Below are positions 1 to 13,790 of a stretch of DNA of 47,468 nucleotides, in pieces. The number at the start of each line of letters is the position of its first letter. Positions within the stretch are counted from its first letter, which is position 1. A program made the translations under genes and the position numbers. The stretch is from contig DBWC01000047.1 in NCBI GenBank assembly GCA_002308615.1, positions 1 to 47,468 of the forward strand. The letters are read 5' to 3'. Source of the stretch: Clostridiales bacterium UBA1248. GTDB lineage: Bacteria > Bacillota > Clostridia > Oscillospirales > CAG-272. The notes under the pieces were generated by a model, which worked only from the letters and a program-made list of their open reading frames with translations, was not told the DNA's origin and made no database searches.

Positions 1-1049
1 GGCTTTTTGCCGTAGTAATATACGAAAGTGTCGAGATAGCTTACGGTATAGAACGCCGGAAGCTCCTGCAGAAGATACGGATGCTCAAAACCCGAGAAAT
101 CCACGAATCTGTTGTCCACGCGGATGATGCTTCCGTCAAGCGTATACGTGTTCTCCATATACGACGGCGTAAGAGAGCCGTTCAGCGCCCAGTCCTTCGC
201 CTGAGTTTTTACACAGACCGAATCCGCGTCTATCTCAAGATCAATAAGACGCGACGGAGTCCCCGCGACGTCGCCGCCCTGTACCGGGTTGTAGTTCCAT
301 TTTGCGCCGTTGAACACGCCGGGATCGTATACGCCTTCGATTTCCGGCGTGCCGTAGTACGACTGCTGTACGAGTCTGCCGGTGTCGTGCTGGTTTATCA
401 GGTTCTCAAGCCCTTCGACCTTGCAGCGCTTGTCCGATATATACGATATTCCGCCGCCCCACGCAAGCCTGATGCCGAGGCGCAGATCGCCGTTTTCGAT
501 ATAGAAGTTGCCGTCCGCGTCGGTCGCGGGGAGCTGCACGCTTTCGGTCGTTATTTTTCCGAGCCCGAAACCGTACGTCCCGGGCAAAAGCGGAGAGACC
601 TCCGCGTAAGCTATCCCGTCAGCAGATCCGCCGGACAAAAAGCCGCTGATCAGACCGCGGAAATCCCCGTTTCCGGAAGCTTCGAGAAAGAACCGCTCGA
701 CTGACGTTTCATCGCCTTTTTTCAGCGCGACGTCTATCACGCACGGCGCAGTGCAGCTGTATCCGATCCGGATGCGGTTGAAAGGAGCGCCGGCTTTCAC
801 GTCTGTCAACGTGAACTTTACGGTTCCGTCCGAATAATACATACCGTCCCTTTCTTCATATTTACCCGATACCTCGTATATTTTCCCCTCCGCGGTCACG
901 GCGTCCGTATCCGTAACGGGCACGCTTTCCGTATCCGTAACGGGCGCGGTTTCGGTTCCGCCCCCGCATGACGGCAGTGTTATGAGCGCTGCCGCGGCGA
1001 GCGCCGGCGCGAGAAACTTTTTTATTGTTTTTGAAACGTTCGTTTTCAT
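1..1049 (-). CDS. Secreted lipoprotein of unknown function (3' end runs off the window start)
   Basis: Absent from the ORF track because it is cut by the window edge. Minus-strand ATG at 1047-1049 with GGAGG 6 nt upstream (1056-1060). N-terminus MKTNVSKTIKKFLAPALAAAALITLPSCGGG is a signal peptide plus lipobox Cys, followed by a Thr/Glu/Asp-rich linker. The frame stays open to nt 1 (~349 codons). Family not recognised. Confidence 0.8.
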   Translation of the reverse strand, partial: MKTNVSKTIKKFLAPALAAAALITLPSCGGGTETAPVTDTESVPVTDTDAVTAEGKIYEVSGKYEERDGMYYSDGTVKFTLTDVKAGAPFNRIRIGYSCTAPCVIDVALKKGDETSVERFFLEASGNGDFRGLISGFLSGGSADGIAYAEVSPLLPGTYGFGLGKITTESVQLPATDADGNFYIENGDLRLGIRLAWGGGISYISDKRCKVEGLENLINQHDTGRLVQQSYYGTPEIEGVYDPGVFNGAKWNYNPVQGGDVAGTPSRLIDLEIDADSVCVKTQAKDWALNGSLTPSYMENTYTLDGSIIRVDNRFVDFSGFEHPYLLQELPAFYTVSYLDTFVYYYGKK

Positions 1050-1177: not shown

Positions 1178-1260
1178 GCATATCGCGTTTTATTCGGTCT
1201 TCATCGGGAAAAGCCTGCAATATAGCTTTTTTCGTAGTTTGCAAAAATAGCTTCTATTGT

Positions 1261-1440
1261 TCACTCTCTTTTATCCTGTTTCGATTCAAACATTTTTATC
1301 CTCCGGGGTCTCTCTATCGAGTTCTATTTCGACTCAAACCAGAGGCTTTTTTCTGATTCGATTCGGAATCAAATTAGAATCTTCCATCTTCTTCTGATTC
1401 AGAACTCTATCTCCTAATTCGGAGTTAAAACAGATAAATA
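1261..1440 (+). repeat. Diverged inverted copy (foldback arm) of the ~165-nt module
   Basis: The outer end ACTCTCTTTTATCCTGTTTCGATT (1263-1286) mirrors the outer end of the core copy (revcomp of 1604-1631). It shares ordered words with 11861-12050: GATTCAAAC, GACTCAAAC/GACTCGAAAC, TTAGAATCTTCC/TTAGAGTCTTCC. Confidence 0.45.
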
Positions 1441-1479
1441 CGGAATATCTTCGTCGTTTTCTCTTCAAATTCTGATTTT

Positions 1480-1636
1480 ATCGGATCTTTTTCGGATAAG
1501 AAAAAGACCCTGTTTTCACAAGGTCTTTATTGGATTTATTTGGATTTTTCTCTTTAATTCTTTCTCGATTCAGATTCGGAACAGGATAAAATGGAGTGAA
1601 CCAAATCGGGGGGAAAGAGGATAAAGAGAGTTGGAC
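1480..1636 (-). ncRNA. Candidate small RNA / conserved repeat module, copy 1 (family not recognised)
   Basis: Aligns by eye over ~155 nt with 11682-11850 and 12099-12260. It ends in the hairpin AAAGACCTTG-TGAAAA-CAGGGTCTTT (1503-1528) plus a T-run on the minus strand. Its 5' part is CU-rich (CTCTCTTTATCCTCTTTCCCCCC). A promoter lies upstream (next feature). The track ORF 1478..1678 is not conserved as an ORF in the other copies. Confidence 0.4.
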
Positions 1637-1666
1637 GGAGACATAGTATATAGACCTTGTACGGTC

Positions 1667-1695
1667 AGTATAACTCATTAAACCGGATTTTTCAA
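1667..1695 (-). promoter_or_regulatory. sigma70-type promoter upstream of module copy 1
   Basis: Minus strand TTGAAA (1690-1695), 17-nt spacer, TATACT (1667-1672). It lies ~30 nt upstream of the conserved core. Confidence 0.45.
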
Positions 1696-1833
1696 GCGGT
1701 TTTGACCGAAATATACGAATTGTTTACAAACAGATATATCGACCGGTAAAAGGGCATGGCAATTATCCACATCTTTAATAGGGCCGTTTCCTGATTCATT
1801 TATGCTATTATTCACTGTTCCTTATCATTTAAT

Positions 1834-2175
1834 TTAGCTTTCTTTATTCTTATTTTCATCGCTGTATTTATATATTCCCCGATGCACATAATAGTCTTTT
1901 AGCTCTTGGCACTGATCGTCCGACAGAATTCTCTCTCGTATACAGAATCTGATCTCACAATCGATCTCCGTACGGTAGCAGTCCTCACAATCGCCGTCTC
2001 TTTCGTTGATGCAGATCATGAAATCGTCGATCGCTTTTTCCAACTCTTCCGGAATCGGATAAGAAATATTCAGTTTTTTATACGGGACGTTATGCGGATT
2101 AAAATAGCCTTTTTTATTCGCTGTGTAAACCGTTGTTGTTTTTTCCTTGTTAATCTCCGGCAAATTGCTGTTCAT
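1834..2175 (-). CDS. Hypothetical small Cys-rich protein (113 aa)
   Basis: Complete ORF with GGAGAAAC RBS 8 nt upstream of the ATG. It has six Cys residues in a DGDCEDCYRTEIDCEIRFC...C region. It is AT-rich relative to the flanks. No family recognised. Confidence 0.65.
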   Translation of the reverse strand: MNSNLPEINKEKTTTVYTANKKGYFNPHNVPYKKLNISYPIPEELEKAIDDFMICINERDGDCEDCYRTEIDCEIRFCIRERILSDDQCQELKDYYVHRGIYKYSDENKNKES

Positions 2176-2258
2176 TTTTTTTGTTTCTCCTTCAATCTTC
2201 TACTTACAGAATTTTATATTGGCAAATACTGTTCCCGCTTACCTAAAATAGCATACTG

Positions 2259-3005
2259 TCATATCGTATTACCGCCTAAAACCCAGCCGTTGTCACCGTG
2301 ATATATCATCAGTTTCGTCATACCGCCGTCGATACAGAGATTTTCACCTGTTATAAATCCGGCTTTATCGGAGCAGAGGAAAAGCACGGCGGAAGCTATG
2401 TCAAGCGGATTTCCGACTCTGCCGACGGGTTGCTGATACGCGTCGGGACCTTCATATACGCGGTACGCGGTATCTATCCAACCCGGGGATATGGAATTTA
2501 CTCTGATCTTTCCGGCAAAGCTGACGGCGAGCGCGTGCGTCAGAGCCGAAATACCGCCCTTTGCCGCCGTGTAGCTTTCCGTCTGCGGCTGGCTCATTCT
2601 GTCGCGTGAAGATGATATATTGATTATCGAACCGCCGTCGGTAAAATACGGCGCAAACAGTTTTGACAGATAAAACGGAGCCGTAACCCCGACAGAGAGC
2701 GCATATGAAAATTCTTCGTAGGAACACGAATCTATACCTTTCATAAGCGGCGGCGCGTTGTTGATCAGATAATCTATTTGACCGAACTTTGCGATAACGC
2801 TTTCGGCAAAGGCTTCAATCACGGTTTTATCGCCTATATCGCCGATAAAGTGATCTCCGGGCATAGTGTCGATAACAGCAACGGAAGCTCCGTTTTTCTC
2901 AAACTCATCTGCGATACACTTCCCTATACCGCACGCGCCGCCCGTTATTACAGCGACTTTATTTTTAAATTCAATATTCATACGATTTTCCGCTTTCTGC
3001 ATCAC
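2259..3005 (-). CDS. SDR family oxidoreductase
   Basis: TGGACGIG dinucleotide-binding motif, NNA motif, catalytic S...YTAAK, and a PG-W-DT C-terminal pattern. The start may instead be the internal ATG at 2981 (MNIEFKNKVAVITGG). Confidence 0.9.
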   Translation of the reverse strand: MMQKAENRMNIEFKNKVAVITGGACGIGKCIADEFEKNGASVAVIDTMPGDHFIGDIGDKTVIEAFAESVIAKFGQIDYLINNAPPLMKGIDSCSYEEFSYALSVGVTAPFYLSKLFAPYFTDGGSIINISSSRDRMSQPQTESYTAAKGGISALTHALAVSFAGKIRVNSISPGWIDTAYRVYEGPDAYQQPVGRVGNPLDIASAVLFLCSDKAGFITGENLCIDGGMTKLMIYHGDNGWVLGGNTI

Positions 3006-3006
3006 T

Positions 3007-3612
3007 TTATTGTTCGTTTGCTATTCTTATGTATTTGTAAACCGTCCCGCGGGAGCATTCAAGGATCCTTGACATTTCGGTTACGGTCAGTTGATTGTTC
3101 TTATATCTGTTATATGCTTTCCAAAAGTTAGCAGGAATGTCGTCGGCGGTTGTTTGAGGTCTTCCGATCTTTTTTCCTTTAGCGACAGCATTCTTCATAC
3201 CGGATCGTACACGTTCGCTGATGATATCACGTTCCATTTCGGCAAAGACCGCCCACATCATAAGCATACCTTTAGTCATAGCGTCGATATCGTCGGCGCG
3301 GCAATCGACGCAAAAAGTTCCTATTATTAACCGGAGTTTTTTATTTTGGATCAAAGAAAGAATTTCGCAAAGATGCTGCGTTGAACGGGACAGTCGAGAC
3401 ACCTCGGTAGATATGATCGTATCACCCGGCTGAACAATATTAAGGAGCTTTGTAAGCTCAGGCCGATTCGTTTTTGCTCCGGACTCATACTCCCAATATA
3501 TATGAGCGTCATCTTCAACACCGAGTTTTAAAAGATCTCTTTTTTGTCTGTCTATATCCTGTCTCAATTCCGACGTGCTGCACCGTGCGTAACCGTAAAT
3601 AACTCCCACCAA
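3007..3612 (-). CDS. Small serine recombinase (resolvase/invertase family) with C-terminal HTH
   Basis: N-terminal YARCSTSELRQDIDRQ contains the catalytic-Ser motif, followed by STEVSRLSRS, E-helix region FAEMERDIISERVRSG and GRP. The C-terminal HTH is LTVTEMSRILECSRGTVYKYI. AAGGAGG lies upstream, and the GTG at 3607-3609 may be the true start. Confidence 0.9.
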   Translation of the reverse strand: MVGVIYGYARCSTSELRQDIDRQKRDLLKLGVEDDAHIYWEYESGAKTNRPELTKLLNIVQPGDTIISTEVSRLSRSTQHLCEILSLIQNKKLRLIIGTFCVDCRADDIDAMTKGMLMMWAVFAEMERDIISERVRSGMKNAVAKGKKIGRPQTTADDIPANFWKAYNRYKNNQLTVTEMSRILECSRGTVYKYIRIANEQ

Positions 3613-3623
3613 AGCCTCCTTGA

Positions 3624-3685
3624 TGTTTACAAAACGGTATATTTTGTTTTGTGAACATTATACCCCGCTTTTTCGGGTTTTTCAA
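3624..3685 (-). promoter_or_regulatory. Recombinase promoter overlapped by a 12-10-12 inverted repeat (candidate operator / res-like site)
   Basis: Minus strand TTGAAA (3680-3685), 17 nt, TATAAT (3657-3662). The inverted repeat is TGTTTACAAAAC (3624-3635), 10 nt, GTTTTGTGAACA (3646-3657), matching 11/12, and spans the -10 box and 5'UTR. Confidence 0.5.
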
Positions 3686-3984
3686 GGTGTGTATTGTAAA
3701 TAAAAAAGTGTCTTCAAAAAGATTTGTTTTTGTGACGCTTTATTGATTTGATAACATAATAGATAAAACAAGCCGGATTCACTATGACCCGGCTTTTTAT
3801 GTTCGTTTTTTTCTTTGAAATGTCATTAATCAGATTATCATAAGGAGAATTTTTCAAATTGTTTTGAGATATTATAGGATATATACTTGAAAAAAATATT
3901 ATTTGTGATATAATATTAAATGGGTTATAATATAGTTTTGTCTTCAAGCAAAGTGTAGGTATAAATGGTTGGTAGGTATATATT

Positions 3985-4158
3985 GTGGAGTTAATTGATA
4001 ACACTTCCAAAACGCTGAGGGATGATTTGGCAGATGAAATTAAAGAAGGCAGCAAGCTATCGGTTGCAGCTGCGTGCTTTTCTATTTACGCTTTTCAGGA
4101 ACTAAAAAGTGAGTTTATGATTATGATAGAAAATAAAAGTAGAGAAGGAGAACCATAA
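3985..4158 (+). pseudogene. 5' stub resembling the N-terminus of PLD-domain/SF2-helicase (restriction/defence type) proteins
   Basis: A GTG-initiated 57-codon ORF encodes VELIDNTSKTLRDDLADEIKEGSKLSVAAACFSIYAFQELKSE. From memory this matches the conserved N-terminal PLD-like segment of large helicase/nuclease proteins. It then diverges and stops at 4156-4158, overlapping the ATG of the next gene. TATAAT-like boxes lie upstream (3900-3945). Confidence 0.45.
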
Positions 4159-5201
4159 TGAATGTAAGTAAACCGACGCCCGGAAAAGACGGCAACAAGT
4201 ACGTACCTTTTGAAAAGCGTACGGGAGAAAGCTCAACAGTTTTCTTTACGCGCGATCTGTCCGAGAACGGGCTGAAAAAAGTATTTGACAAAGTAAGCTC
4301 GGTGCTGTGCGGAAAAATTGCGGTAAAACTGCATACAGGCGAAGCGCAGGGACCGAACATAATTCCGCGTCCATGGGTAAAGGAGTTGTTCGCCTCACGT
4401 CTGCAGAACGCGTCGATCATTGAGACAAACACGTATTACGAAGGCAGCCGCTACACTACCGAGGCTCATCGTAAGACGCTTGAGATCAACGGCTGGACTT
4501 TTTGCCCGGTAGATATAACCGACAGCGACGGCGTCGCCGTGCTTCCCGTCAAAGGCGGCAAATGGTTTTCCGAGATGCACGTCGGCAAAAGTATGCTTGA
4601 TTACGACTCTCTTCTTGTCCTGACGCATTTCAAGGGGCATATGATGGGCGGCTTCGGGGGAAGCAACAAAAACATCGGTATCGGATGCGCGGACGGACGG
4701 ATCGGCAAGGCGGAGATACATACCGCTGTCGGCTCGGATAATATGTGGAGCATTGCCGAAGAGGAGTTGATGGAGCGTATAAGCGAAAGCACAAAGGCGA
4801 CGATAGATTATTTTGCGCCGCACGTCTGCTATATAAACGTTATGCGCAATATGTCCGTTTCCTGTGACTGCGAAGGTCCGGAGGCGGAGCCTGTCGTCAC
4901 GCCGGACGTGGGAATCCTTGCGTCGCTTGATATTCTGTCCGTTGACAACGCGTGTATGGATCTGATATATAATCTTCCGGACGGCGGCGGAAAAGCTCTT
5001 GTCGAAAGGGTCGAATCCCGTCACGGACTGCGTCAGCTCAGCTATATGAAAGAGCTCGGCATGGGCAACGACCGTTATACGCTGATAGACGTTGACAACG
5101 GCGACGCAGTCGTCACAGCCGCCGAAGCGGTAAAAGACGTAAAACCGGGATGGAGACCGGATCGCTATAACACTTTCTTAGGACGCAACAGGCGCGGATA
5201 G
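4158..5201 (+). CDS. DUF362 domain-containing protein
   Basis: AAGGAG RBS. Motifs typical of DUF362: KIAVKLHTGE, ETNTYYEGSRYTTEAH, THFKGHMMGGFGGSNKNIGIGC. Confidence 0.85.
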   Translation: MNVSKPTPGKDGNKYVPFEKRTGESSTVFFTRDLSENGLKKVFDKVSSVLCGKIAVKLHTGEAQGPNIIPRPWVKELFASRLQNASIIETNTYYEGSRYTTEAHRKTLEINGWTFCPVDITDSDGVAVLPVKGGKWFSEMHVGKSMLDYDSLLVLTHFKGHMMGGFGGSNKNIGIGCADGRIGKAEIHTAVGSDNMWSIAEEELMERISESTKATIDYFAPHVCYINVMRNMSVSCDCEGPEAEPVVTPDVGILASLDILSVDNACMDLIYNLPDGGGKALVERVESRHGLRQLSYMKELGMGNDRYTLIDVDNGDAVVTAAEAVKDVKPGWRPDRYNTFLGRNRRG

Positions 5202-5221
5202 GAAACGGAAGGAAAAGTATA

Positions 5222-6103
5222 ATGAGCCGGTGCGAAATTGTGAAGAAGATTATAATTTTGCTGCTTTTGCTCCCTGCTGTAATAAGTATCAGCGCATGCG
5301 GCGGCGGAAACGGAGGCATAACCGAAATGAATACTGATACAACCGGCGACGTGCTTTTGCCAACGACCAGCCAACTTGACGATGAAACAACAGCAAAGCC
5401 GGGATCATATACTCAGATATCTCAGGAAGAAGCCAAAGAGATGATGAAAAAGAACAACGGGCACGTTATCGTTGACGTGCGCCGTCAGGACGAGTATGAT
5501 GAAGGACATATCCCCGGAGCGATACTCATACCAAACGAAAGCATCGGAACGGAAAAGCCGGAAGAACTGCCGGATCTTGATCAGATAATTCTCGTTTACT
5601 GCAGAAGCGGCAGAAGAAGCAAGGAGGCGGCGCAGAAGCTGTTCGATATGGGATATACGCATATTTATGAATTTGGCGGAATAATAGACTGGACGGGAGA
5701 CATTGTGAAAGACGAAATAACTGAACCTGTAGCGCCAACGTGCGTGCTTGTTATAAAAGTCGGAGAAAAGCTGTTTTACGCAAACCTTGAGGACAATTCG
5801 TCTGCAAAGGCGCTTGTTGAAAAACTGAATTCCGGACCGATCACCGTGGATATGCATGACTACGGTAGCTTTGAAAAGGTGGGCGAGCTCCCGTGGGAAC
5901 TGCCGCGAAACGATGAGAATATAACGACAGTGCCCGGAGATATTATCCTCTATCTCGGAAAGCGTATTGTCATTTACTACGACGAGAACACATGGGATTT
6001 CACGCGGATTGCAAAGATTGAAAACACAAGCAAGGATGAACTACTCGCCGCGCTCGGCGACGGAAACGTATCGGTATCGTTTTATCTGGAGTGGAGTGAA
6101 TGA
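5222..6103 (+). CDS. Lipoprotein with rhodanese domain fused to a cyclophilin-like domain
   Basis: Signal peptide plus lipobox (ISISACGGG). The rhodanese core is VIVDVRRQDEYDEGHIPGAILIP...VYCRSGRRS with an active-site Cys loop. The C-terminal half (KVGEKLFYANLEDNSSAKALVEKL...GDIILYLGKRIVIYY) resembles the cyclophilin-like fold family. Confidence 0.85.
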   Translation: MSRCEIVKKIIILLLLLPAVISISACGGGNGGITEMNTDTTGDVLLPTTSQLDDETTAKPGSYTQISQEEAKEMMKKNNGHVIVDVRRQDEYDEGHIPGAILIPNESIGTEKPEELPDLDQIILVYCRSGRRSKEAAQKLFDMGYTHIYEFGGIIDWTGDIVKDEITEPVAPTCVLVIKVGEKLFYANLEDNSSAKALVEKLNSGPITVDMHDYGSFEKVGELPWELPRNDENITTVPGDIILYLGKRIVIYYDENTWDFTRIAKIENTSKDELLAALGDGNVSVSFYLEWSE

Positions 6104-6136
6104 GCCGATGAAAAAACAGATCAAAACAACGATATT

Positions 6137-6760
6137 ATGAAACTATATGAATTCGGCGACGCAGGCGCCGATACCGTTCTTATTCAGCCGGTGGACGATC
6201 ACGACCTTTCGGGCATCGAAAACGAGGTCGCGCTCATCGCCGCGAACTGCGGTAAAAGCTTTCGCCTGATCGCGGTCAAAATCGACAACTGGAATACCGA
6301 TCTTTCGCCGTGGAAAGCGCCCGCCGTGTTTGGAAAAGATGATTTCGGCGGCGGCGCGGAAGAAACGCTCGCGGGAATACTGAAGCTCTGTTCGGACGTG
6401 AGCAAAACGTATTATATCGGCGGCTATTCGCTCGCGGGACTTTTCGCGCTTTGGGCGGCGTACCGGACGGACGTTTTCAAAGGCGTCGCGGCAGCGTCCC
6501 CGTCGATGTGGTTCCCGGGCTTTGCGGATTATATGAATGAGAATGAGATCAAAACCGGCGCTGTCTATCTCAGTCTCGGCGACAAGGAAGAAAAAGCGCG
6601 CAATCCCGTTATGGCGACGGTCGGCGACAGGATCCGCGAGGCGCACGCCATGCTCTCCGGACACGGCGTAAAATGTACGCTTGAATGGAACGAAGGCAAT
6701 CACTTCAAGGACACCGATATCCGCACGGCAAAGGCGTTTTCGTGGTTGATAAAGAATTGA
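6137..6760 (+). CDS. Alpha/beta hydrolase (putative esterase)
   Basis: Nucleophile elbow GYSLAG, with length and pattern typical of small esterases. Confidence 0.8.
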   Translation: MKLYEFGDAGADTVLIQPVDDHDLSGIENEVALIAANCGKSFRLIAVKIDNWNTDLSPWKAPAVFGKDDFGGGAEETLAGILKLCSDVSKTYYIGGYSLAGLFALWAAYRTDVFKGVAAASPSMWFPGFADYMNENEIKTGAVYLSLGDKEEKARNPVMATVGDRIREAHAMLSGHGVKCTLEWNEGNHFKDTDIRTAKAFSWLIKN

Positions 6761-6796
6761 GAGCTCCCGACAAATCGGGATTTGCGGAGGTAATAC

Positions 6797-7426
6797 ATGG
6801 AACTGTACGAAACAATCAATCAAAGAAGAACCGTTAGAGAGTTTCTCGATAAAGAAGTCGATTTTGAAGCAATCAAACGTATTTTAGAGGCGGGCAATAA
6901 AGCACCGACCTGGAACCATAACCGTAACTGGAGCTATATCGTTCTGCGAACCGATGAAGAAAAAGAATACGCTTTCGATTACGCGAAAAAGATGGCGGAG
7001 AAATTCGACGCGGACAGATACCTGAATATGCCGAGACCGTACCCGGTAACGCTCGCGCAGAAAATGTACGGATACGCTGTCCCGAGACAGTTTACGATGC
7101 TGAAAAACGCGCCGTATGTTATCATCCCCGTTTTCAAATGCAAGGAACTGAACGGCGAATACGTTTCCAAACTGAATCCGTTCTCGACGATCTGGTGCGT
7201 GATCGAAAACATATTTCTCGCGGCGACAGCCGAAGGGCTTGGATGCTCCATGAGGATACCGCTGAACGAGGAACACGACATCGTAAAAGCGAAACTGAAA
7301 GTCCCGCCGACGTATATGATCCCCGTTTTTATCGGGATCGGATATACTGACCCGAACGAAACGGTACTTGAACAGAGTTATCCCGATTTGGAGAAACAAC
7401 TGCATTTCGGTAAATGGAAAAAATGA
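6797..7426 (+). CDS. Nitroreductase family protein
   Basis: GGAGG RBS. N-terminal INQRRTVREF, then KAPTWNHNRNW and a C-terminal IGIGY pattern. Confidence 0.9.
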   Translation: MELYETINQRRTVREFLDKEVDFEAIKRILEAGNKAPTWNHNRNWSYIVLRTDEEKEYAFDYAKKMAEKFDADRYLNMPRPYPVTLAQKMYGYAVPRQFTMLKNAPYVIIPVFKCKELNGEYVSKLNPFSTIWCVIENIFLAATAEGLGCSMRIPLNEEHDIVKAKLKVPPTYMIPVFIGIGYTDPNETVLEQSYPDLEKQLHFGKWKK

Positions 7427-7747
7427 AGACTATTAGGCGATTTCGATATCCGATCGGAATTCTTTTTCATCGGAAAAACCGACGAAGAAATATCGCTGGT
7501 TTGCAGGACCGAAGATACTCCGTCAAAAACGGCAGAACGCGACGACGGATGGCGAGGATTTCGCATTCAGGGAACGCTCGATTTCTCACTGATCGGTATT
7601 CTTTCAAAAATATCCGGCATCCTCACGGAACATAAAATCGGGATCTTTGCGGTATCAACGTACAATACGGATTATATCCTTGTTAAAGAAAATAACTTTG
7701 AAAAGGCTTTAACGGTATTGGCTTCCGAAGGATATACAATAATATAG
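7423..7747 (+). pseudogene. ACT domain (ACT_7-like) gene with a frame break just after its ATGA-coupled start
   Basis: Frame 7427..7747 encodes ...LLGDFDIRSEFFFIGKTDEEISLVCRTEDTP...DDGWRGFRIQGTLDFSLIGILSKISGILTEHKIGIFAVSTYNTDYILVKE but contains no ATG/GTG/TTG. The only coupled ATG (7423-7425, overlapping the nitroreductase TGA) is in a different frame. Confidence 0.55.
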
Positions 7748-7772
7748 ATTAGGATTTGCAAAGGCAAACAGA

Positions 7773-8342
7773 ATGATAATTGAAACCGAAAGACTGATAC
7801 TCCGCCCGTTTCTTGAAACAGATGCGGCGGACGTTTTCGAATACTTACATAAACCGGCGGTCAACTGCTTTGCGTCGATGAAACTGGATACGCTTGAAGA
7901 CGCAAAAAAAAAAATGAAAAAACGCGTCAGCGAGACTGAATACTACTTTGCTATTACACTGAAAGACGGCGGCAAGGTGATCGGCGAGATCGACGCTTAT
8001 CCCGAAGCCGGAGAGCCGCACGAGGATGAAACCTCGCCGAAGGACACGTTCAGCCCGTGCTGGATGCTGAATCTGAATTATACCGGAAAAGGCTACGCCT
8101 ATGAAGCGGCGCACGCTTTCTTCGATTACCTGTTCAATGAAAAAGGCGCAAGGCGGATATACGCTTATACCGAGGATACTAACCTTCCGAGTCAGCACCT
8201 TTGTGAAAAACTCGGAATGCGCCGCGAAGGATTGTTCCTTGAGTTTATCTCGTTCGTAAACAACCCGGACGGCACGCCTCGTTATGAGAATACATATCAG
8301 TACGCGATTCTGAAAAAGGAGTGGGATAAAAGAAAAGCATGA
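7773..8342 (+). CDS. GNAT family N-acetyltransferase (RimJ/RimL-like)
   Basis: N-terminal IETERLILRPF, YTGKGYAYEA acetyl-CoA loop, and SQHLCEKLGMRREG. Confidence 0.9.
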   Translation: MIIETERLILRPFLETDAADVFEYLHKPAVNCFASMKLDTLEDAKKKMKKRVSETEYYFAITLKDGGKVIGEIDAYPEAGEPHEDETSPKDTFSPCWMLNLNYTGKGYAYEAAHAFFDYLFNEKGARRIYAYTEDTNLPSQHLCEKLGMRREGLFLEFISFVNNPDGTPRYENTYQYAILKKEWDKRKA

Positions 8343-8953
8343 CGCAATACGAAAGAATGGTAAAAGGTCTGATCTACGACCCCGCTGACCCGGAAATCAT
8401 GGCGGAGCAGGTCCCGTTTCAGGATAAACTGTGGGAATTCAATCAGTTGAAACCCTCTGACTATGAGAAAAAACAGCGATATATGAAAGAGGTCTTCGCC
8501 GAATGCGGCGAAAACTGCTATATCGAACTGCCGCTCCGAGCCAACTGGGGCGGTCATCACCTGCATTTCGGCTCAAATATCTACGCGAATTCCAACCTTA
8601 CGCTTGTGGACGACGGGCATATCTACGTCGGCGACAAGGTGATGTTCGGACCGAACGTGACGATCGCGACGGCGAATCATCCGATCGATCCCGAACTGCG
8701 CACCCGCGCTCTGCAGTATAACAAGGACGTGTATATCGGCGAGAACGTATGGATCGGCGCGGGAGTAATCATCGTGCCCGGAGTTCGTATAGGCAAGAAC
8801 AGCGTTATCGGCGCGGGGAGCGTCGTGACGAAGGACATCCCCGAAAACGTCGTTGCAGTCGGTAATCCCTGCCGCGTATTACGGGAAATATCCGAACGCG
8901 ATAAGGAATTCTTTTACAAAAACGAACGGATAGACTGGGAAGAGTTGGATTGA
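8339..8953 (+). CDS. maa: Sugar (maltose/galactoside) O-acetyltransferase, hexapeptide-repeat family
   Basis: Mac-type N-terminal region (GLIYDPADPEI...), then left-handed beta-helix hexapeptide repeats (IGENVWIGAGVIIVPGVRIGKNSVIGAGSVV). It overlaps the GNAT gene by ATGA. Confidence 0.9.
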   Translation: MTQYERMVKGLIYDPADPEIMAEQVPFQDKLWEFNQLKPSDYEKKQRYMKEVFAECGENCYIELPLRANWGGHHLHFGSNIYANSNLTLVDDGHIYVGDKVMFGPNVTIATANHPIDPELRTRALQYNKDVYIGENVWIGAGVIIVPGVRIGKNSVIGAGSVVTKDIPENVVAVGNPCRVLREISERDKEFFYKNERIDWEELD

Positions 8954-8955
8954 CC

Positions 8956-9354
8956 ATGAAGTTTAAACACACAAGCCGTCCGGGCTTCCTTCTCGGATTT
9001 ATAGATTTTTTCACAGCCGGATTATTCTTCCTGCTGTATATGCCTCTCGGCGGACTGCAGAAGGAACTGGAAGATATCCTCGGCCACAAGGTTCGGCCGT
9101 ACTGGCAGGCGTATCTGCTCGGTATTCCGACGCTGTTCATTTATACGCTTGTATGGATGGCGAACATATCTGAAGAACTAAAAGCGAAAGCGACCGAGCT
9201 GGGTATTGAAGGTCCGCATACGTCATGGAAGCACATGTTCTGGTGGAACATGCTCGGCTGTCTCTGCTTCGGACCGATGATCGCGACGCACAGATTCTTC
9301 AGAACGCTGAATAAGGTTGAATCAGAACTGAACAAATGTGGATCAAAAAACTGA
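8956..9354 (+). CDS. Small membrane protein (DUF4234-like)
   Basis: Hydrophobic helices are present. The ATG at 8956 is preferred over the track's TTG at 8950. The family assignment is from memory only. Confidence 0.7.
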   Translation: MKFKHTSRPGFLLGFIDFFTAGLFFLLYMPLGGLQKELEDILGHKVRPYWQAYLLGIPTLFIYTLVWMANISEELKAKATELGIEGPHTSWKHMFWWNMLGCLCFGPMIATHRFFRTLNKVESELNKCGSKN

Positions 9355-9414
9355 AAGGAACCAGGATAGATTTTTTATCCGGACTGATGAATCCGGTTTT
9401 TGAGGTATGATGAA

Positions 9415-10623
9415 ATGACGATAAGATCTGCAAAAACAAGCGCGATACTCATTATTTCGGCGGTATTTCTGTATATTTTGTGTTCATGCAAAGCGAACGC
9501 GCCGGACACGATGTCTGACGCAATTACAACAGAAACGTCAACGGAAACTGAAGCTTTCACAACGGAGAAAGAAACGGAAGAGGCAGAGATGAAGCTGAAA
9601 GACAATATTACGTTTGAACAAAGCGAAGAGATCATAATTCGTCCGTTTTCCTGGGCGCCGCGCGTTTATTATTCAAACGGCGGTGAGATTATCGCAGGTT
9701 ACGAGACACCGGAGGGGATAAAGACCGCTAAAAGCAAGGACGGCGGCAAAACGTGGTACGGCGAAGCGGATGCCTCGTTTTTTAAAGATCTCAACTGTGC
9801 AAACGTAAATTTCTTTTTTGATGGAGAACGTATTTATCTCGCGTACCGCGCCGTAGGGAATACCGATAAAGGACTTTACACCTCGCTTCAGGTAAGCGTA
9901 TCCGAAGACAACGGCAAAAGCTGGTCGTATCATTCGACCGTCGCCGAATACACGGACAACAAAGGCGGCTGCGGTGTATGGGAGCCTTATCTCGGACTGC
10001 TTAACGGCAGACTTATCTGTATGTATGCAAACGATCATCCGTCTGTGACGAAATATCAGAATATAGAATATCTTGTGTGGAACGGAACTGAATGGACGGA
10101 ACGCACCGTAATAAGCGACGGCAACGCTCATAAATCGCGTGACGGAATGCCCGTCTGGTGCGAGTCACCCGACGGCGGTTATCTATGCATTATCGAGAGC
10201 ACGACGGAGCGTAATAAAGGCTATCCTTTCGTGCTTAAGCTGTTTTATTCGGAGGACGGCGTGAACTGGTCCGAGCCGAAGATAATATATAAGCCGTCGT
10301 CAAAGAATTCAAAAACCGCCGCGCCGGGCGTTGCCGTTTTGCCTGACGGACGTCTGGCCGTCAGCTTTCAGACGGACGAGGACGCGACCGTAAAGGGCGA
10401 CTCTCAAAGTGTTATGAAGATAATGATCTCTGACGGCACGTCTGTAAAAGAGCTTGATAAAACACATTTCTCAACACCCGAAAACATTTTCGGCACGCCG
10501 GACGGAGAATCGTCTGTATGGAGCGGTATTTTTTACCGTGACGGTGTGATATATGCATCCGCAGGAACGAAAAACGGCTCGTCGCTCAAAACCGCCGTGG
10601 TGTATAATAAAACAAAATCGTAA
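9415..10623 (+). CDS. BNR/Asp-box repeat sialidase-like lipoprotein
   Basis: Signal peptide with a Cys (YILCSC) and a Thr/Glu linker. Three Asp-box motifs: SKDGGKTW, SEDNGKSW, SEDGVNWS. The ATG at 9415 with GAGG 9 nt upstream is preferred to the TTG at 9400. Confidence 0.85.
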   Translation: MTIRSAKTSAILIISAVFLYILCSCKANAPDTMSDAITTETSTETEAFTTEKETEEAEMKLKDNITFEQSEEIIIRPFSWAPRVYYSNGGEIIAGYETPEGIKTAKSKDGGKTWYGEADASFFKDLNCANVNFFFDGERIYLAYRAVGNTDKGLYTSLQVSVSEDNGKSWSYHSTVAEYTDNKGGCGVWEPYLGLLNGRLICMYANDHPSVTKYQNIEYLVWNGTEWTERTVISDGNAHKSRDGMPVWCESPDGGYLCIIESTTERNKGYPFVLKLFYSEDGVNWSEPKIIYKPSSKNSKTAAPGVAVLPDGRLAVSFQTDEDATVKGDSQSVMKIMISDGTSVKELDKTHFSTPENIFGTPDGESSVWSGIFYRDGVIYASAGTKNGSSLKTAVVYNKTKS

Positions 10624-10627
10624 AACA

Positions 10628-11464
10628 ATGAAAAAACTGAACAAAAAAAGGCTTTGTCTTTATACGCCGCCTTTACCTGACAACACGTCTATGCTTGATA
10701 CGATAGAACTTGCGGAAACGCTCGGACTCGGCGGCATCGAGCTTATGAATTTTTGCCGTGAGCTGAAAACTCCCGATATTGACGGTGCCGCGCGTTTATT
10801 CAACGCCGCAAAGGAAAAGGATCTGTACGTACCTTGCCTTACCGTCAACTCGGATATCCCGACTTCCCCCGATGAAGCCGTGGAGACGCTGAAAAAATAC
10901 GCCGATATATGCGCAGCGTTCGGCATAAAATATCTGCATCATACGATAGCTAAGGACTTTCATTGTTATGATATATCCGATATTGAGATAAACAGAAGAT
11001 TTGAGGTATGTATTCCCGCGGTAAAGCAGGTGTGCGAATACGCAAACTCGATAAATGTCAGTATCTTAACGGAAAATCAGGGTTTTGTCTTTAACGGCGT
11101 ATCGAATATGCGGCGGCTGTATGAAAGAACCGGAGGGAAAATCGGTTTTATCGCCGACACGGGAAATACGCTGTTTTTAGATGAAAAACCTGAGAAATTC
11201 ATAAAGGAATTTAAAGACAAAGTTTATCACGTACATATTAAAGATTATAAGATTGCAGACGGTGATGATCCGGATGAGCCTATATATATTTCACGCGGCG
11301 GGATGCGCTTTACAGACGCCGAAATAGGCACGGGGATCATCCCGCTTGACCGTGTGATAAATACGTTGAATGATATAAACTACCGCGGTATGTTCTCTCT
11401 TGAATTCAACGGCGTTAAGGACTGTGAAGAAATAAAACGAGTGCTGAAAAGAATTACCGAATGA
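10628..11464 (+). CDS. Sugar phosphate isomerase/epimerase (xylose isomerase-like TIM barrel)
   Basis: MKKLNKKRLCLYT start. The track start at 10553 overlaps the previous gene. Typical features are the ...GIELMNF..., ENQG, and HVHIKD patterns. Confidence 0.85.
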   Translation: MKKLNKKRLCLYTPPLPDNTSMLDTIELAETLGLGGIELMNFCRELKTPDIDGAARLFNAAKEKDLYVPCLTVNSDIPTSPDEAVETLKKYADICAAFGIKYLHHTIAKDFHCYDISDIEINRRFEVCIPAVKQVCEYANSINVSILTENQGFVFNGVSNMRRLYERTGGKIGFIADTGNTLFLDEKPEKFIKEFKDKVYHVHIKDYKIADGDDPDEPIYISRGGMRFTDAEIGTGIIPLDRVINTLNDINYRGMFSLEFNGVKDCEEIKRVLKRITE

Positions 11465-11536
11465 TGACCTGACCGATTATCTTGATATGCGGGCATAAAT
11501 CCGACGAATGATCCCGACAATAATACAACAAAAAAA

Positions 11537-11590
11537 AGCAACGAATTAAGTAACCGATTATGTTAATTGATTGTTCGCTGCTTTTTTATG
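11537..11590 (+). terminator. Possible intrinsic terminator
   Basis: AGCAACGAA...TTCGCTGCT stem (one mismatch, extended by AATTAA/TTAATT) followed by TTTTTT. The A-run upstream means it could work in both directions. Confidence 0.4.
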
Positions 11591-11681
11591 TTATTTTATT
11601 AAACACCCAAATATATAGCGCTCAATAATATATAGAAATCTTATTCCTCATCATCAAACGAATAATCATTCAACTCTTTGT

Positions 11682-11850
11682 ATCGGATCTTTTTCGGATA
11701 AGAAAAAGACCCTGTTTTCACAAGGTCTTTGATGGATTTTGATGGAGTTTTTCTCTTTAATTCTTTCTCGATTCAGATTCAAGAGAGGATAAAATGGAGT
11801 GAACCAAATCGGGGGGAAAGAGGATAAAGAGAGGTGGAAAGGATCAACGG
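11682..11850 (-). ncRNA. Candidate small RNA / conserved repeat module, copy 2
   Basis: Differs from copy 3 at only 3 positions over ~146 nt. It has the same terminator hairpin (11705-11730) plus a T-run on the minus strand. The conserved frame has no start codon. Confidence 0.4.
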
Positions 11851-11860
11851 CTGTCCATTT

Positions 11861-12050
11861 CCATTCTTCTTTTTTCTATTTTGATTCAAACAAGTTTTTT
11901 CTGTCATATTGAATCAATCGGACTCGAAACGGAGGCTCACTCCATCTCATTCCATCTCGAATTCCGACTCGAAACAGAGTCTTTTTAGAGTCTTCCGTCT
12001 TGCTCTAATTCTCCTCTAAATCTCTGAAAAGAGAGAGAAAAGATGGATTT
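11861..12050 (+). repeat. Diverged inverted copy (foldback arm) of the module
   Basis: The plus strand GGCTCACTCCATCTCATTCCATCTCGAATTCCGACTCGAAA parallels the minus-strand core GGTTCACTCCATTTTATCCTCTCTTGAATCTGAATCGAGAAA. Its word order is shared with 1261-1440. Confidence 0.4.
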
Positions 12051-12098
12051 TCTATAGAAATTCTGCATTTTTCTTTCGATTTTGGAGTTGGACAGAGT

Positions 12099-12260
12099 CT
12101 TTCGGAAATAGAAAAAAGACCCTGTTTTCACAAGGTCTTTGATGGATCTTGATGGAGTTTTTCTCTTTAATTCTTTCTCGATTCAGATTCAAGAGAGGAT
12201 AAAATGGAGTGAACCAAATCGGGGGGAAAGAGGATAAAGAGAGGTGGACAGGATCAATGG
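12099..12260 (-). ncRNA. Candidate small RNA / 3'UTR element, copy 3 (starts 3 nt after the guaA stop)
   Basis: Same module with a terminator hairpin at 12115-12140 followed by TTTTTTCTATTT on the minus strand. It serves as the guaA operon terminator. Confidence 0.45.
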
Positions 12261-12263
12261 CGA

Positions 12264-13790
12264 TCATTCCCACTCCACCGTGGCGGGGGGTTTGGAGGTT
12301 ATGTCGTATACCACGCGGTTGATGGTTTTAACTTCGTTCGTTATGCGGCGGGAGGTTTTATCGAGGACGTCGAACGGGACGCGCGTCCAGTCCGCCGTCA
12401 TAAAGTCGTCCGTCGTAACGGCGCGTAGCGCCACGGTGTAGCCGTACGTTCTCGCGTCGCCCATAACGCCGACGCTCTGCGTATCGGTAAGCACCGCGAA
12501 GTACTGATTCGATTTGACGTTTGCCGCTTCAAGTTCTTCTCTGAAAATGGCGTCCGCCTCACGCAGCGTGTCCGCTTTTTCCTTCGTTATATCGCCGATT
12601 ATACGCACTGCGAGACCCGGTCCGGGGAACGGCTGACGCATAACGAGCTTTTCCGGTATGCCGAGTTTAAGTCCGACGGCTCTTACCTCGTCCTTGAACA
12701 GCTCGCGCAGAGGCTCTACTATGCCTTTAAACTCCATTACGGACGGCAGGCCGCCGACGTTATGGTGGCTTTTTATCGTTGACGCGTCACCTTTGCCGCT
12801 TTCTATAACGTCCGGGTATATAGTTCCCTGCACCAGATAGTCCGCGTTTCCTATGACGTGGCTCTGATCCTCAAACACGCGTATGAATTCCTCGCCTATA
12901 ATACGGCGCTTTTTCTCCGGCTCTTTTACGCCGGCGAGCTTTATAAGAAATCTGTCTTCGGCATTTACGCGGATGAGATTCATATTGAACTGATGACGGA
13001 AAATGCGCTCAACGTCGTCGCCCTCGTTTTTGCGGAGCAGTCCGTGATCGACGAAAACGCAGGTCAGGTTATCGCCTACCGCTCTGTGTATCAAAACCGC
13101 CGCGACGGACGAGTCGACGCCGCCGGACAGGGCGCACAAAACGCGTCTGCCTTTAAGCTCTTTCTTATATTTTTCTATCGTTTTTTCTATGAAATCGTCC
13201 ATTTTCCAGTCGCCCTTGCAGCCGCAGACCGCGAAAATGAAGTTATATAGGATCTTCGTTCCGTATTCGGTATGCGTTACTTCCGGATGGAACTGCACGC
13301 CATATATGCGGCGGCAAAAGTCCGCCATAGCGGCGCACGGGCAGTTGTCCGTGTGAGCGATGATCTCAAAGCCGTCCGGTATCTGCTTTACGTAATCCGT
13401 ATGGCTCATCCAGCATACGCTTTTTTCGGGAACGTCATTAAAAAGATCGCATTTATTTACGTACACGTCCGTTTTTCCGTATTCGCTTATGCTTCCGGCG
13501 GAGCATATTTCACCGCCCGCCATATACGCCGTGAGCTGATGGCCGTAGCAGATGCCGAGCACGGGCACGCCGATATCAAGGATTTCCTTATCGTAATGCG
13601 GAGATCTTTCGTCGTAGACGCTGTTCGGTCCGCCCGTGAAGATTATGCCTTTATAACCCTCTTCTTTTATCTCGTCAAGCGTTATTTTGTTATACGGTTT
13701 TATCTCGGCGTAAACGCCCTGTTCGCGCACGCGGCGCGCTATCAGAAGATCGTACTGGCCGCCGAAATCAAGAACAAGAATCTTTTCCAT
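12264..13790 (-). CDS. guaA: GMP synthase (glutamine-hydrolysing)
   Basis: 508 aa with an N-terminal GATase ([11 protein letters not shown]) and an ATP-PPase SGGVDSS motif. The C-terminus ...KPPATVEWE is typical of GuaA. Confidence 0.97.

Follow-up and report, generated by a model that had tools for sequence, protein, structure and literature searches.

Several kinds of small intergenic repeat provide a background for the sequence studied here. Repeats resembling MITEs (miniature transposable elements with inverted repeats) include Correia/NEMIS of Neisseria, ERIC, RUP and BOX of Streptococcus pneumoniae, and bcr1 of the Bacillus cereus group. REP/BIME sequences and REPINs of Proteobacteria are palindromic units that affect termination and mRNA stability, while CIMEs and MITE-bracketed mobilisation units are non-autonomous islands flanked by repeats or by att sites. 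Small fold-back intergenic repeats that supply terminators are a known kind of sequence (PMC2229807). On the side of regulatory RNAs, LhrC exists in several copies, with redundant CUCCC...UUUU motifs in its loops that bind the Shine-Dalgarno region (PMC4132741). Here, we analyse a repeat carried by contig DBWC01000047.1 of Clostridiales bacterium UBA1248, an uncultured rumen Clostridium; the whole stretch of 47,468 nucleotides is called the window below. Two copies of this repeat are stacked behind guaA on the minus strand, and a third lies about 10 kb away. We conclude that the family is probably, if with no great assurance, a lineage-restricted, dispersed, mobile-type non-coding intergenic repeat whose conserved part, hereafter the head, is made of a hairpin and a terminator.

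The window contains three heads on the minus strand, each of ~155 nt and with 90-98% identity to one another, that we named A, B, and C. The head of copy A spans 12098..12256 and was delimited by its match to a covariance model (CM; 193 bits), its predicted fold, and a terminator scan. Copy B is a head only (11679..11846, 197 bits), and copy C is a full unit (1254..1643, 187 bits) composed of a head at 1486-1643 and a tail at 1254-1485, both on the minus strand. In blastn comparisons, the identity of A to B is 96% over 162 nt (E 2e-57), that of A to C 90% over 150 nt, and that of B to C 93% over 154 nt; a repeat scan gave 73% for C because its alignment was ungapped and C has a 1-nt deletion. 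Both a 26-mer of the 5' arm and the 26-nt terminator sequence occur exactly three times in the window and never in 100 shuffles, which rules out a chance match. The earlier note on this DNA had described two look-alike modules behind guaA and a third some 10 kb off, and the blastn matches, 26-mer counts, and shuffles confirm it. Searching the window with a CM built from A, B, and C revealed no further full copies. The repeat has a GC content of 0.36-0.39 (~38%), against 0.50-0.56 in the neighbouring genes.

The comparison of copies with different flanks, and a three-way alignment of the units A, C, and D (copy D being on another contig, see below), were used to set the boundaries. The family-wide 5' boundary is TGATCC at 12256, 7 nt past the guaA stop; A and B have 5 further bases in common. 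The head belongs to a unit of ~390-406 nt, at 11851-12256 for A, at 1254-1643 for C, and in copies elsewhere. The modules of ~165 nt proposed in the earlier note are thus real repeats, with a start and a size that had to be revised. Copy B follows unit A head to tail, is separated from it by CCGT (11847-11850), and loses its homology to other units ~20 nt past the terminator.

By folding, the head consists of a 26-bp imperfect hairpin, a 21-nt A-rich linker, and an 11-bp intrinsic terminator. The hairpin (12162-12242 in A, 11752-11832 in B, and 1549-1629 in C) carries an 18-nt CU-rich apical loop and a CCCC internal loop. Its 5' arm is the pyrimidine tract, and the predicted partner of this tract is the purine-rich GAAUCGAGAAAGAAUUAAAGAGA / GAAUCUGAAUCGAGAAAGAAUUAAAGAGA. 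The predicted minimum free energy is -37.3 kcal/mol for A (z -3.3) and -35.0 kcal/mol for C (z -4.1). The terminator scan confirmed in each copy the strong terminator that had been noticed at the module end, with 11 pairs, a 4-nt loop, and a U-run (12140-12115 in A, 11730-11705 in B, and 1528-1503 in C); as expected of Rho-independent terminators, a run of T5-6 follows the stem in all copies. It is directional, since the sense fold reaches -14.8 kcal/mol and the antisense fold -10.0 kcal/mol with only 3 U. We also considered a strand asymmetry of the large hairpin through G-U pairs and rejected it, because the values (sense -20.9, antisense -21.3 kcal/mol) give no signal. The idea that a pyrimidine-rich tract with a C6 run faces Shine-Dalgarno sequences survives in part: the apical loop, the CCCC bulge, and the CU-rich segments of the linker are predicted to be unpaired with probability 0.6-0.99, whereas most of the tract is paired in the hairpin. 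Of the C6 run, only 4 C are predicted unpaired, and one copy outside the window has C4UC.

The ~230-nt tail is a diverged inverted copy of the head, as revealed by CM matches on the opposite strand, which makes the unit a foldback with imperfect terminal inverted repeats. In copy A, the tail (11851..12097, minus strand) holds diverged, inverted, partial copies, recovered in the three-way alignment with the C and D units, and it gives weak plus-strand CM matches at 11994-12156 (20.7 bits) and 11856-11978 (18.4 bits). Because the tail holds an inverted head copy, a complement of the apical loop is found 250-315 nt downstream on the same strand, with 27/30 positions paired in A (at 11934-11962, including 5 G-U), 25/30 in C, and 23/30 in D. 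The tail of copy C terminates in the inverted repeat TTCACTCTCTTTTATCCTGTTTC (1260-1282, plus strand), so that the ends of the unit, TCCACCTCTCTTTATCCTCTTTC and the inverted TTCACTCTCTTTTATCCTGTTTC, agree at ~20/23 positions with indels; in A and D these terminal repeats are weaker, and B has none. The whole unit, taken from copy E (L092 5390-5784), has a predicted fold of -116 kcal/mol. With 390-406 nt, no conserved open reading frame (ORF), and at least 8 heads seen, the family has the size and the coding status of MITE-like elements.

Near-identical heads with differing flanks are present in other rumen assemblies (L082, 188 bits; L092; L097; L104; L105; and L106, the L-numbers being labels of comparison contigs and relatives), and a further one lies at a contig end in L098. 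Copy D is the one in L082, a JGI metagenome contig that was the single JGI match to a 21-mer from the first 34 nt of the element. In L097, L104, L105, L106, and at the end of L098, the copies adjoin an XRE-type regulator gene that is 100% conserved, on contigs from several samples, and the right-hand flanks of these copies vary. The unit is found in unrelated contexts. The 5' flank of C (1644..1731, minus strand) is common to the XRE-locus copies and includes a sigma-70-like promoter. In the promoter scan, this site, TTGAAA-17-TATACT at 1695-1667, has 10/12 matches, a predicted start near 1660, and a position ~24 nt upstream of the unit. TTGCAA-17-TATACT occupies the matching site in L082, L097, L104, and L106, in a flank that is ~80-89% identical, and the hexamers and the 17-nt spacing are kept in two species while the spacer sequence varies. 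Such a site was seen only at C and at the XRE-locus copies. That the promoter-bearing flank might be a decayed head copy was rejected, its score being within the range of shuffles. Separately, in L092 (5790-6020) and L104 (100-380) the repeat unit is followed, on these two different contigs, by a region in which the 9-mer TTTTCGGAA or its complement TTCCGAAAA recurs ~8 times upstream of a small ORF whose product begins with MKP; these arrays look like iterons or operators.

The guaA locus provides the clearest comparison of filled and empty sites. The gene (GMP synthase, 508 aa, 12264..13790 on the minus strand, with Pfam domains GATase and GMP_synt_C and its stop at 12264-12266) is the last of a purA-purB-guaA block that is syntenic in relatives. 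We compared the contigs encoding the closest guaA proteins for the presence of the element. The sites of L083-L091 and L096, whose guaA is 91-94% identical in protein and 84-87% in DNA, are empty. These relatives have the same 7-nt flanks as the filled sites, followed by a plain native terminator; the native flank of the window, TCGCCAT (12257..12263, minus strand), is identical to that of the element-free L085, which reads TGATCGCCAT/CGGC (a slash marks the junction). The genome nearest to the source in GTDB is a rumen metagenome-assembled genome (MAG) with a guaA 87% identical in protein, and a CM search of 80 guaA loci of GTDB species found no copy. Only L092 carries a head (198 bits), placed exactly 7 nt past the guaA stop, with junctions that read TAA-TTGCAAA/TGATCC in L092 and TGA-TCGCCAT/TGATCC in the window. 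Its guaA is 87% identical to that of the window in protein and 82.5% in DNA. In a matrix of guaA distances, the window clusters with the genomes whose site is empty and L092 falls outside, a pattern that requires that the element was gained twice at one nucleotide, that it was lost precisely three times or more, or that flank alleles were exchanged. Recombination that would have brought in the element along with the 3' end of guaA was rejected, since the identity profile along guaA is flat (79-87%). The notion of a conserved element tied to guaA did not survive this comparison: the closest relatives lack a copy and have the plain terminator instead. In the window, the first terminator past guaA is the element's own.

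The behaviour of assemblies at the repeat is informative in itself. The Logan contig L001, with an identical guaA, ends 34 nt into the element (6627-6660), exactly 31 nt past the last base separating A from B, the break that a k-31 graph should produce on meeting a repeat. Assemblies break at such repeats, which are then missing from MAG collections, and this is why negative results with exact patterns carry little weight: the exact 26-mer was not found in genome contigs and metagenome contigs, nor were two exact patterns in viral contigs. The window has no match to Rfam at the gathering score, and the region 11400-12400, searched at E up to 10, gives sub-threshold noise only, with no family of the LhrC or UCCC type, in line with the remark of the earlier note that the sequence resembled no RNA family it knew. 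The 391-nt unit has no blastn match in phage and plasmid collections. A six-frame pseudo-protein query found no similar protein among 5.8 billion sequences at E up to 10.

Across the first 5 copies, 36/37 base pairs are invariant. Among 8 heads, 3 paired columns changed one-sidedly and 0 were compensated, in copies that are too similar for a proper covariation test. In L097, two stem changes of the copy are uncompensated and its tail has diverged, as would be expected of a decaying copy. It had been proposed beforehand that copies that are only ever identical, with no covariation, would point to a selfish repeat, and this is largely what we observe.

Near-identical copies, a foldback organisation, unrelated contexts, presence and absence among relatives, and assembly breaks together argue for a dispersed mobile-type repeat, which may be MITE-like itself or carried by mobile DNA. 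A number of observations weigh against this interpretation. No target-site duplication was found at C or E, and unit A has only CCAT/CCGT (3/4 match); the 5' flanks (CCAT, CCGT, CAAA, ACTA, and ACTA) have no conserved target motif; and a search of 1.47 Mb of sequence brought to light neither a parent transposase nor an autonomous element. That two diverged genomes have the insertion at one and the same nucleotide past guaA calls for a mechanism that is so far hypothetical, be it site specificity, precise loss on several occasions, or recombination between alleles. Besides, the 390-nt repeat exceeds the read length, so that short-read contigs across it may be chimeric and only the 5' junctions are firm. 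The pattern of conservation is also awkward. Heads are 94-100% identical across genomes, against 62-69% for tails, ~80-89% for flanks, and 82.5% for guaA, and 13/16 variable head columns are unpaired (~8/10 once clustered changes are merged into events, p about 0.02). A head that stays conserved while its tail and flanks drift suggests a constraint on the head, and simple selfish decay predicts otherwise. Targeting of the IS200/IS605 type was examined and rejected, there being no conserved tetra- or pentanucleotide 5' of the copies. We observed mosaic patterns between copies, e.g., the head of L092 resembles A/B, its tail matches that of C (220/221 identical), and did not use them as evidence because contigs crossing the repeat are possibly chimeric.

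The surroundings of the copies are rich in accessory DNA. The direct repeats C and A/B bracket a segment of ~10 kb (1732..11678), characterised by Pfam and PHROG matches, with patches of low GC and genes for a Hin/Gin-type DNA invertase, a rhodanese, and a xylose-isomerase-like protein; none of its genes was found near guaA in relatives. The invertase gene (3007-3612, minus strand; PHROG 125, E 3e-52; Pfam Resolvase and a helix-turn-helix domain) lies in a stretch of 37% GC, 1.4 kb from copy C, and no invertible segment was identified. The rhodanese-cyclophilin-like gene is 81% identical in protein to its L097 counterpart, and DNA of 97-100% identity to the 3' end of the xylose-isomerase-like gene is present in L097, L099, and L092, whereas the housekeeping genes of those genomes are ~80% identical. 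These genes (window 5222-6103 and 11324-11487; L097 3556-4608; L099 3940-4048; L092 9310-9387) occur on unit-carrying contigs in different order and orientation. Their high identity suggests recently shared accessory DNA, and their recurrence beside units implies that the family travels with horizontally shared DNA or marks its borders. Synteny with relatives is limited to GS-III, purA, purB, and guaA, and it is interrupted at the guaA 3' flank in all genomes compared: L085 (12243-21527) and L086 (9281-16051) have there, directly downstream of guaA, a tyrosine-integrase island that also encodes an MCM-like helicase and a UvrD/CoiA-like protein.

The head could instead be a multicopy trans-acting small RNA (sRNA) of ~165 nt, whose CU-rich loop CUCCAUUUUAUCCUCU, CCCC loop, and CUCC/AUCC linker would pair with Shine-Dalgarno regions, the guaA copies being released as sRNAs derived from the 3' untranslated region (3'UTR). 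There are precedents in LhrC and its loop motifs (PMC4132741), in RoxS/RsaE, and in the streptococcal csRNAs. We regard this as possible, if on the whole unlikely. The promoter kept in two species, the strong terminator of every copy, and the CU-rich segments predicted to be accessible are points in its favour, as is the conservation of the head relative to its surroundings, with variation that avoids the stems. Yet the 37 pairs of 8 copies offer no compensatory change, the two stem disruptions of L097 went uncompensated, the pyrimidine tract is mostly locked in the hairpin, and the C6 run is variable. A promoter is lacking at A, B, and E themselves, the Rfam families all stay below threshold, and presence or absence among close relatives is unlike a housekeeping sRNA. 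The complement of the apical loop in A, C, and D, which could be counted in favour of an sRNA, is more simply the inverted copy in the tail. What stands of the sRNA or 3'UTR reading given in the earlier note is a multicopy nucleotide-level repeat with a terminator, CU-rich segments that are predicted accessible, a probable place in the 3'UTR of guaA, and one promoter-bearing locus; the dispersed and patchy distribution and the lack of covariation among these very similar copies speak against the rest.

The units might also belong to an integrative island that inserts into the 3' flank of guaA and serve as its junctions or recombination sites. In this view, the direct repeats A/B and C at the ends of the 10-kb segment would be either att-like or produced when a circular element with a unit recombined with a resident one. 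The synteny break at the guaA stop, the integrase islands of L085 and L086 at this very site, the direct orientation of A/B and C around a segment that holds a serine recombinase, the sharing of its genes with unit-carrying contigs, and a left junction at the same nucleotide in the window and L092 speak in favour of this. We nonetheless hold it to be improbable, because empty sites contain no part of the 160-nt head, which rules out a classical attB core, because copies also lie beside the XRE-type gene with varying right-hand flanks, and because the only recombinase present is of the invertase/resolvase type, without an integrase. Neither the 3' end of the unit nor the flank after B could be retained as a duplicated, att-like guaA 3' end: a striking MAFFT alignment was discarded, since local alignment scores were no better than those of shuffles (z below 1.5). 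The invertase near copy C brings to mind a phase-variable terminator switch, as at cwpV of C. difficile, in which one orientation terminates transcription and the other lets it pass. The inverted repeats do flank ~340 nt with a one-way terminator, but they are imperfect and much weaker in A and D, all copies point the same way relative to the flank beside them, be it that of guaA or the promoter-bearing one, and A/B have no downstream gene to control, which leaves this scenario very improbable. Least credible of all is a small protein, encoded either by a frame of 22-24 aa, MI(L/R)STSLYPLSPRFGSLHFILS, or by a frame of 73-78 aa from the guaA stop region. In every copy, the short frame has an ATG or TTG start at the junction, contrary to the earlier claim that no start codon is conserved, and this is a trivial consequence of nucleotide identity; the long frame is open in A and L092. 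A Shine-Dalgarno sequence at a suitable distance is lacking, a 1-nt deletion breaks the long frame in C and D, B has no start codon for it, the C-terminus of the short frame is altered in C, and no similar protein was found among the 5.8 billion sequences. The other part of that claim, i.e., conservation at the nucleotide level without a conserved protein, remains correct. A type I toxin-antitoxin system was considered and rejected, as the unit has no hydrophobic small ORF on either strand.

If the family is indeed a dispersed mobile-type repeat, its behaviour and its effects on the host can be sketched as follows: 1) the element would sit at the edges of horizontally shared accessory DNA, and it is found in tandem (A-B), truncated, and decaying copies; 2) at guaA, it would be co-transcribed as a 3'UTR, with transcripts of purA-purB-guaA reading into the head and stopping at its terminator, which would take the place of the native terminator seen in relatives; 3) the hairpin and the terminator would then form the 3' end of the guaA mRNA and probably shield it from 3' exonucleases, the tandem A-B resulting in two stacked terminators; and 4) at the promoter-bearing locus (C and the XRE-locus copies), transcription could yield the head as a free RNA of ~165 nt. 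A bolder proposal, to which we give little credence, is that the head is a self-contained mobile RNA gene with its own terminator and, at some loci, its own promoter. It would spread horizontally in rumen Clostridia and home to the position 7 nt behind the guaA stop, and selection on the RNA would keep heads near-identical while their surroundings drift.

Other relatives have a second, unrelated structured repeat of ~167 nt directly behind guaA, in 1 to at least 3 tandem copies (L087 6854-7020 and 7033-7191; at least 3 copies in L088; L089; and L004 7119-7279). It has a multi-branch fold of -67 kcal/mol (z -4.3) with a U-run at the end, and no match in Rfam at E up to 0.1. Between L087 and L004, whose guaA is 76% identical in protein to that of the window, several stems show compensatory changes, e.g., GAAUGAUG/CAUCAUU to GAAUUAUG/CAUAAUU and CCGG/CCGG to UCGG/CCGA. 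This second repeat is possibly a stronger candidate for a genuine structured RNA than the element analysed here. Both repeat families start with TGATC (window 12251-12266; L087 6854; L004 7119), the L087-type repeat opens with 8 bases (TGATCGCC) that agree with the native guaA flank of the window, TGATCGCCAT, and GATCC bounds the head on both sides (TGATCC ... AAAGATCCGATA). TGATC/GATCC could be a shared cleavage or recombination motif, or a matter of chance.

A few other features of the window deserve mention. A hairpin with A and T runs (11519..11600), an inverted repeat, closes the guaA intergenic region on its far side, where the convergent xylose-isomerase-like gene has its 3' end. At the other end of the segment, downstream of unit C, a GC-rich hairpin with a T-run (1150-1177) resembles a terminator and precedes a lipoprotein-like gene (3-1049, minus strand) that encodes a signal peptide with an LPSC lipobox, has no Pfam match, and possesses its own TTGACG-17-TAGAAT promoter.

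A mobile-type repeat of this sort would represent an uncatalogued family of uncultured rumen Clostridia, one that replaces native terminators, e.g., behind purA-purB-guaA, and marks the borders of horizontally shared DNA. Its recognition would be useful for annotation and for reading the fragmentation of MAGs, since short-read assemblies break at it, and it would not be surprising in kind. Either the identical junction behind guaA genes that are only ~82% identical or the strong conservation of the 160-nt head beside its decaying tail could reveal site-specific mobilisation or a real regulatory RNA.

How, then, does the element compare with the systems described at the outset? Like CIME-type islands, it involves direct repeats on both sides of a 10-kb accessory segment, which adjoins a conserved gene at the 3' end of that gene, in an insertion hotspot, with the differences that the repeats are here of 150-400 nt, are absent from empty sites, and come without an integrase. 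Like REP/BIME sequences, it has units behind genes or between convergent genes, arranged in tandem and in inverted pairs, and a short 5' motif, here TGATC; unlike them, it has units five to ten times longer, occurs in a different phylum, and is accompanied by no gene for RAYT (a Y1 transposase) in the sequence examined. The resemblance to LhrC1-5 of Listeria and to RsaE/RoxS lies in a multicopy and partly tandem organisation, a size of 100-170 nt, an intrinsic terminator, and CUCC...UUUU-type motifs in a loop and in a single-stranded linker that might pair with Shine-Dalgarno sequences. This resemblance would be functional only, as no homology was found in Rfam, the terminator loop has no CU motif, the pyrimidine tract is mostly paired, promoters are present at some copies only, and the element is patchy among close relatives. 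From MITE-like families, the element differs by the lack of a target-site duplication or motif and of a known parent insertion sequence, by the conservation of one half, the head, and not of both ends, and by the lack of sequence similarity to any of them. It shares with these repeats a length of 150-400 nt, a non-coding, multicopy, and AT-rich character, a fold-back structure with inverted ends, an intergenic position just behind genes, where they are co-transcribed and able to supply terminators or stabilising hairpins, and presence or absence between close relatives. The sequence family is previously undescribed, and the kind to which it belongs, the small fold-back intergenic repeats, is well known.

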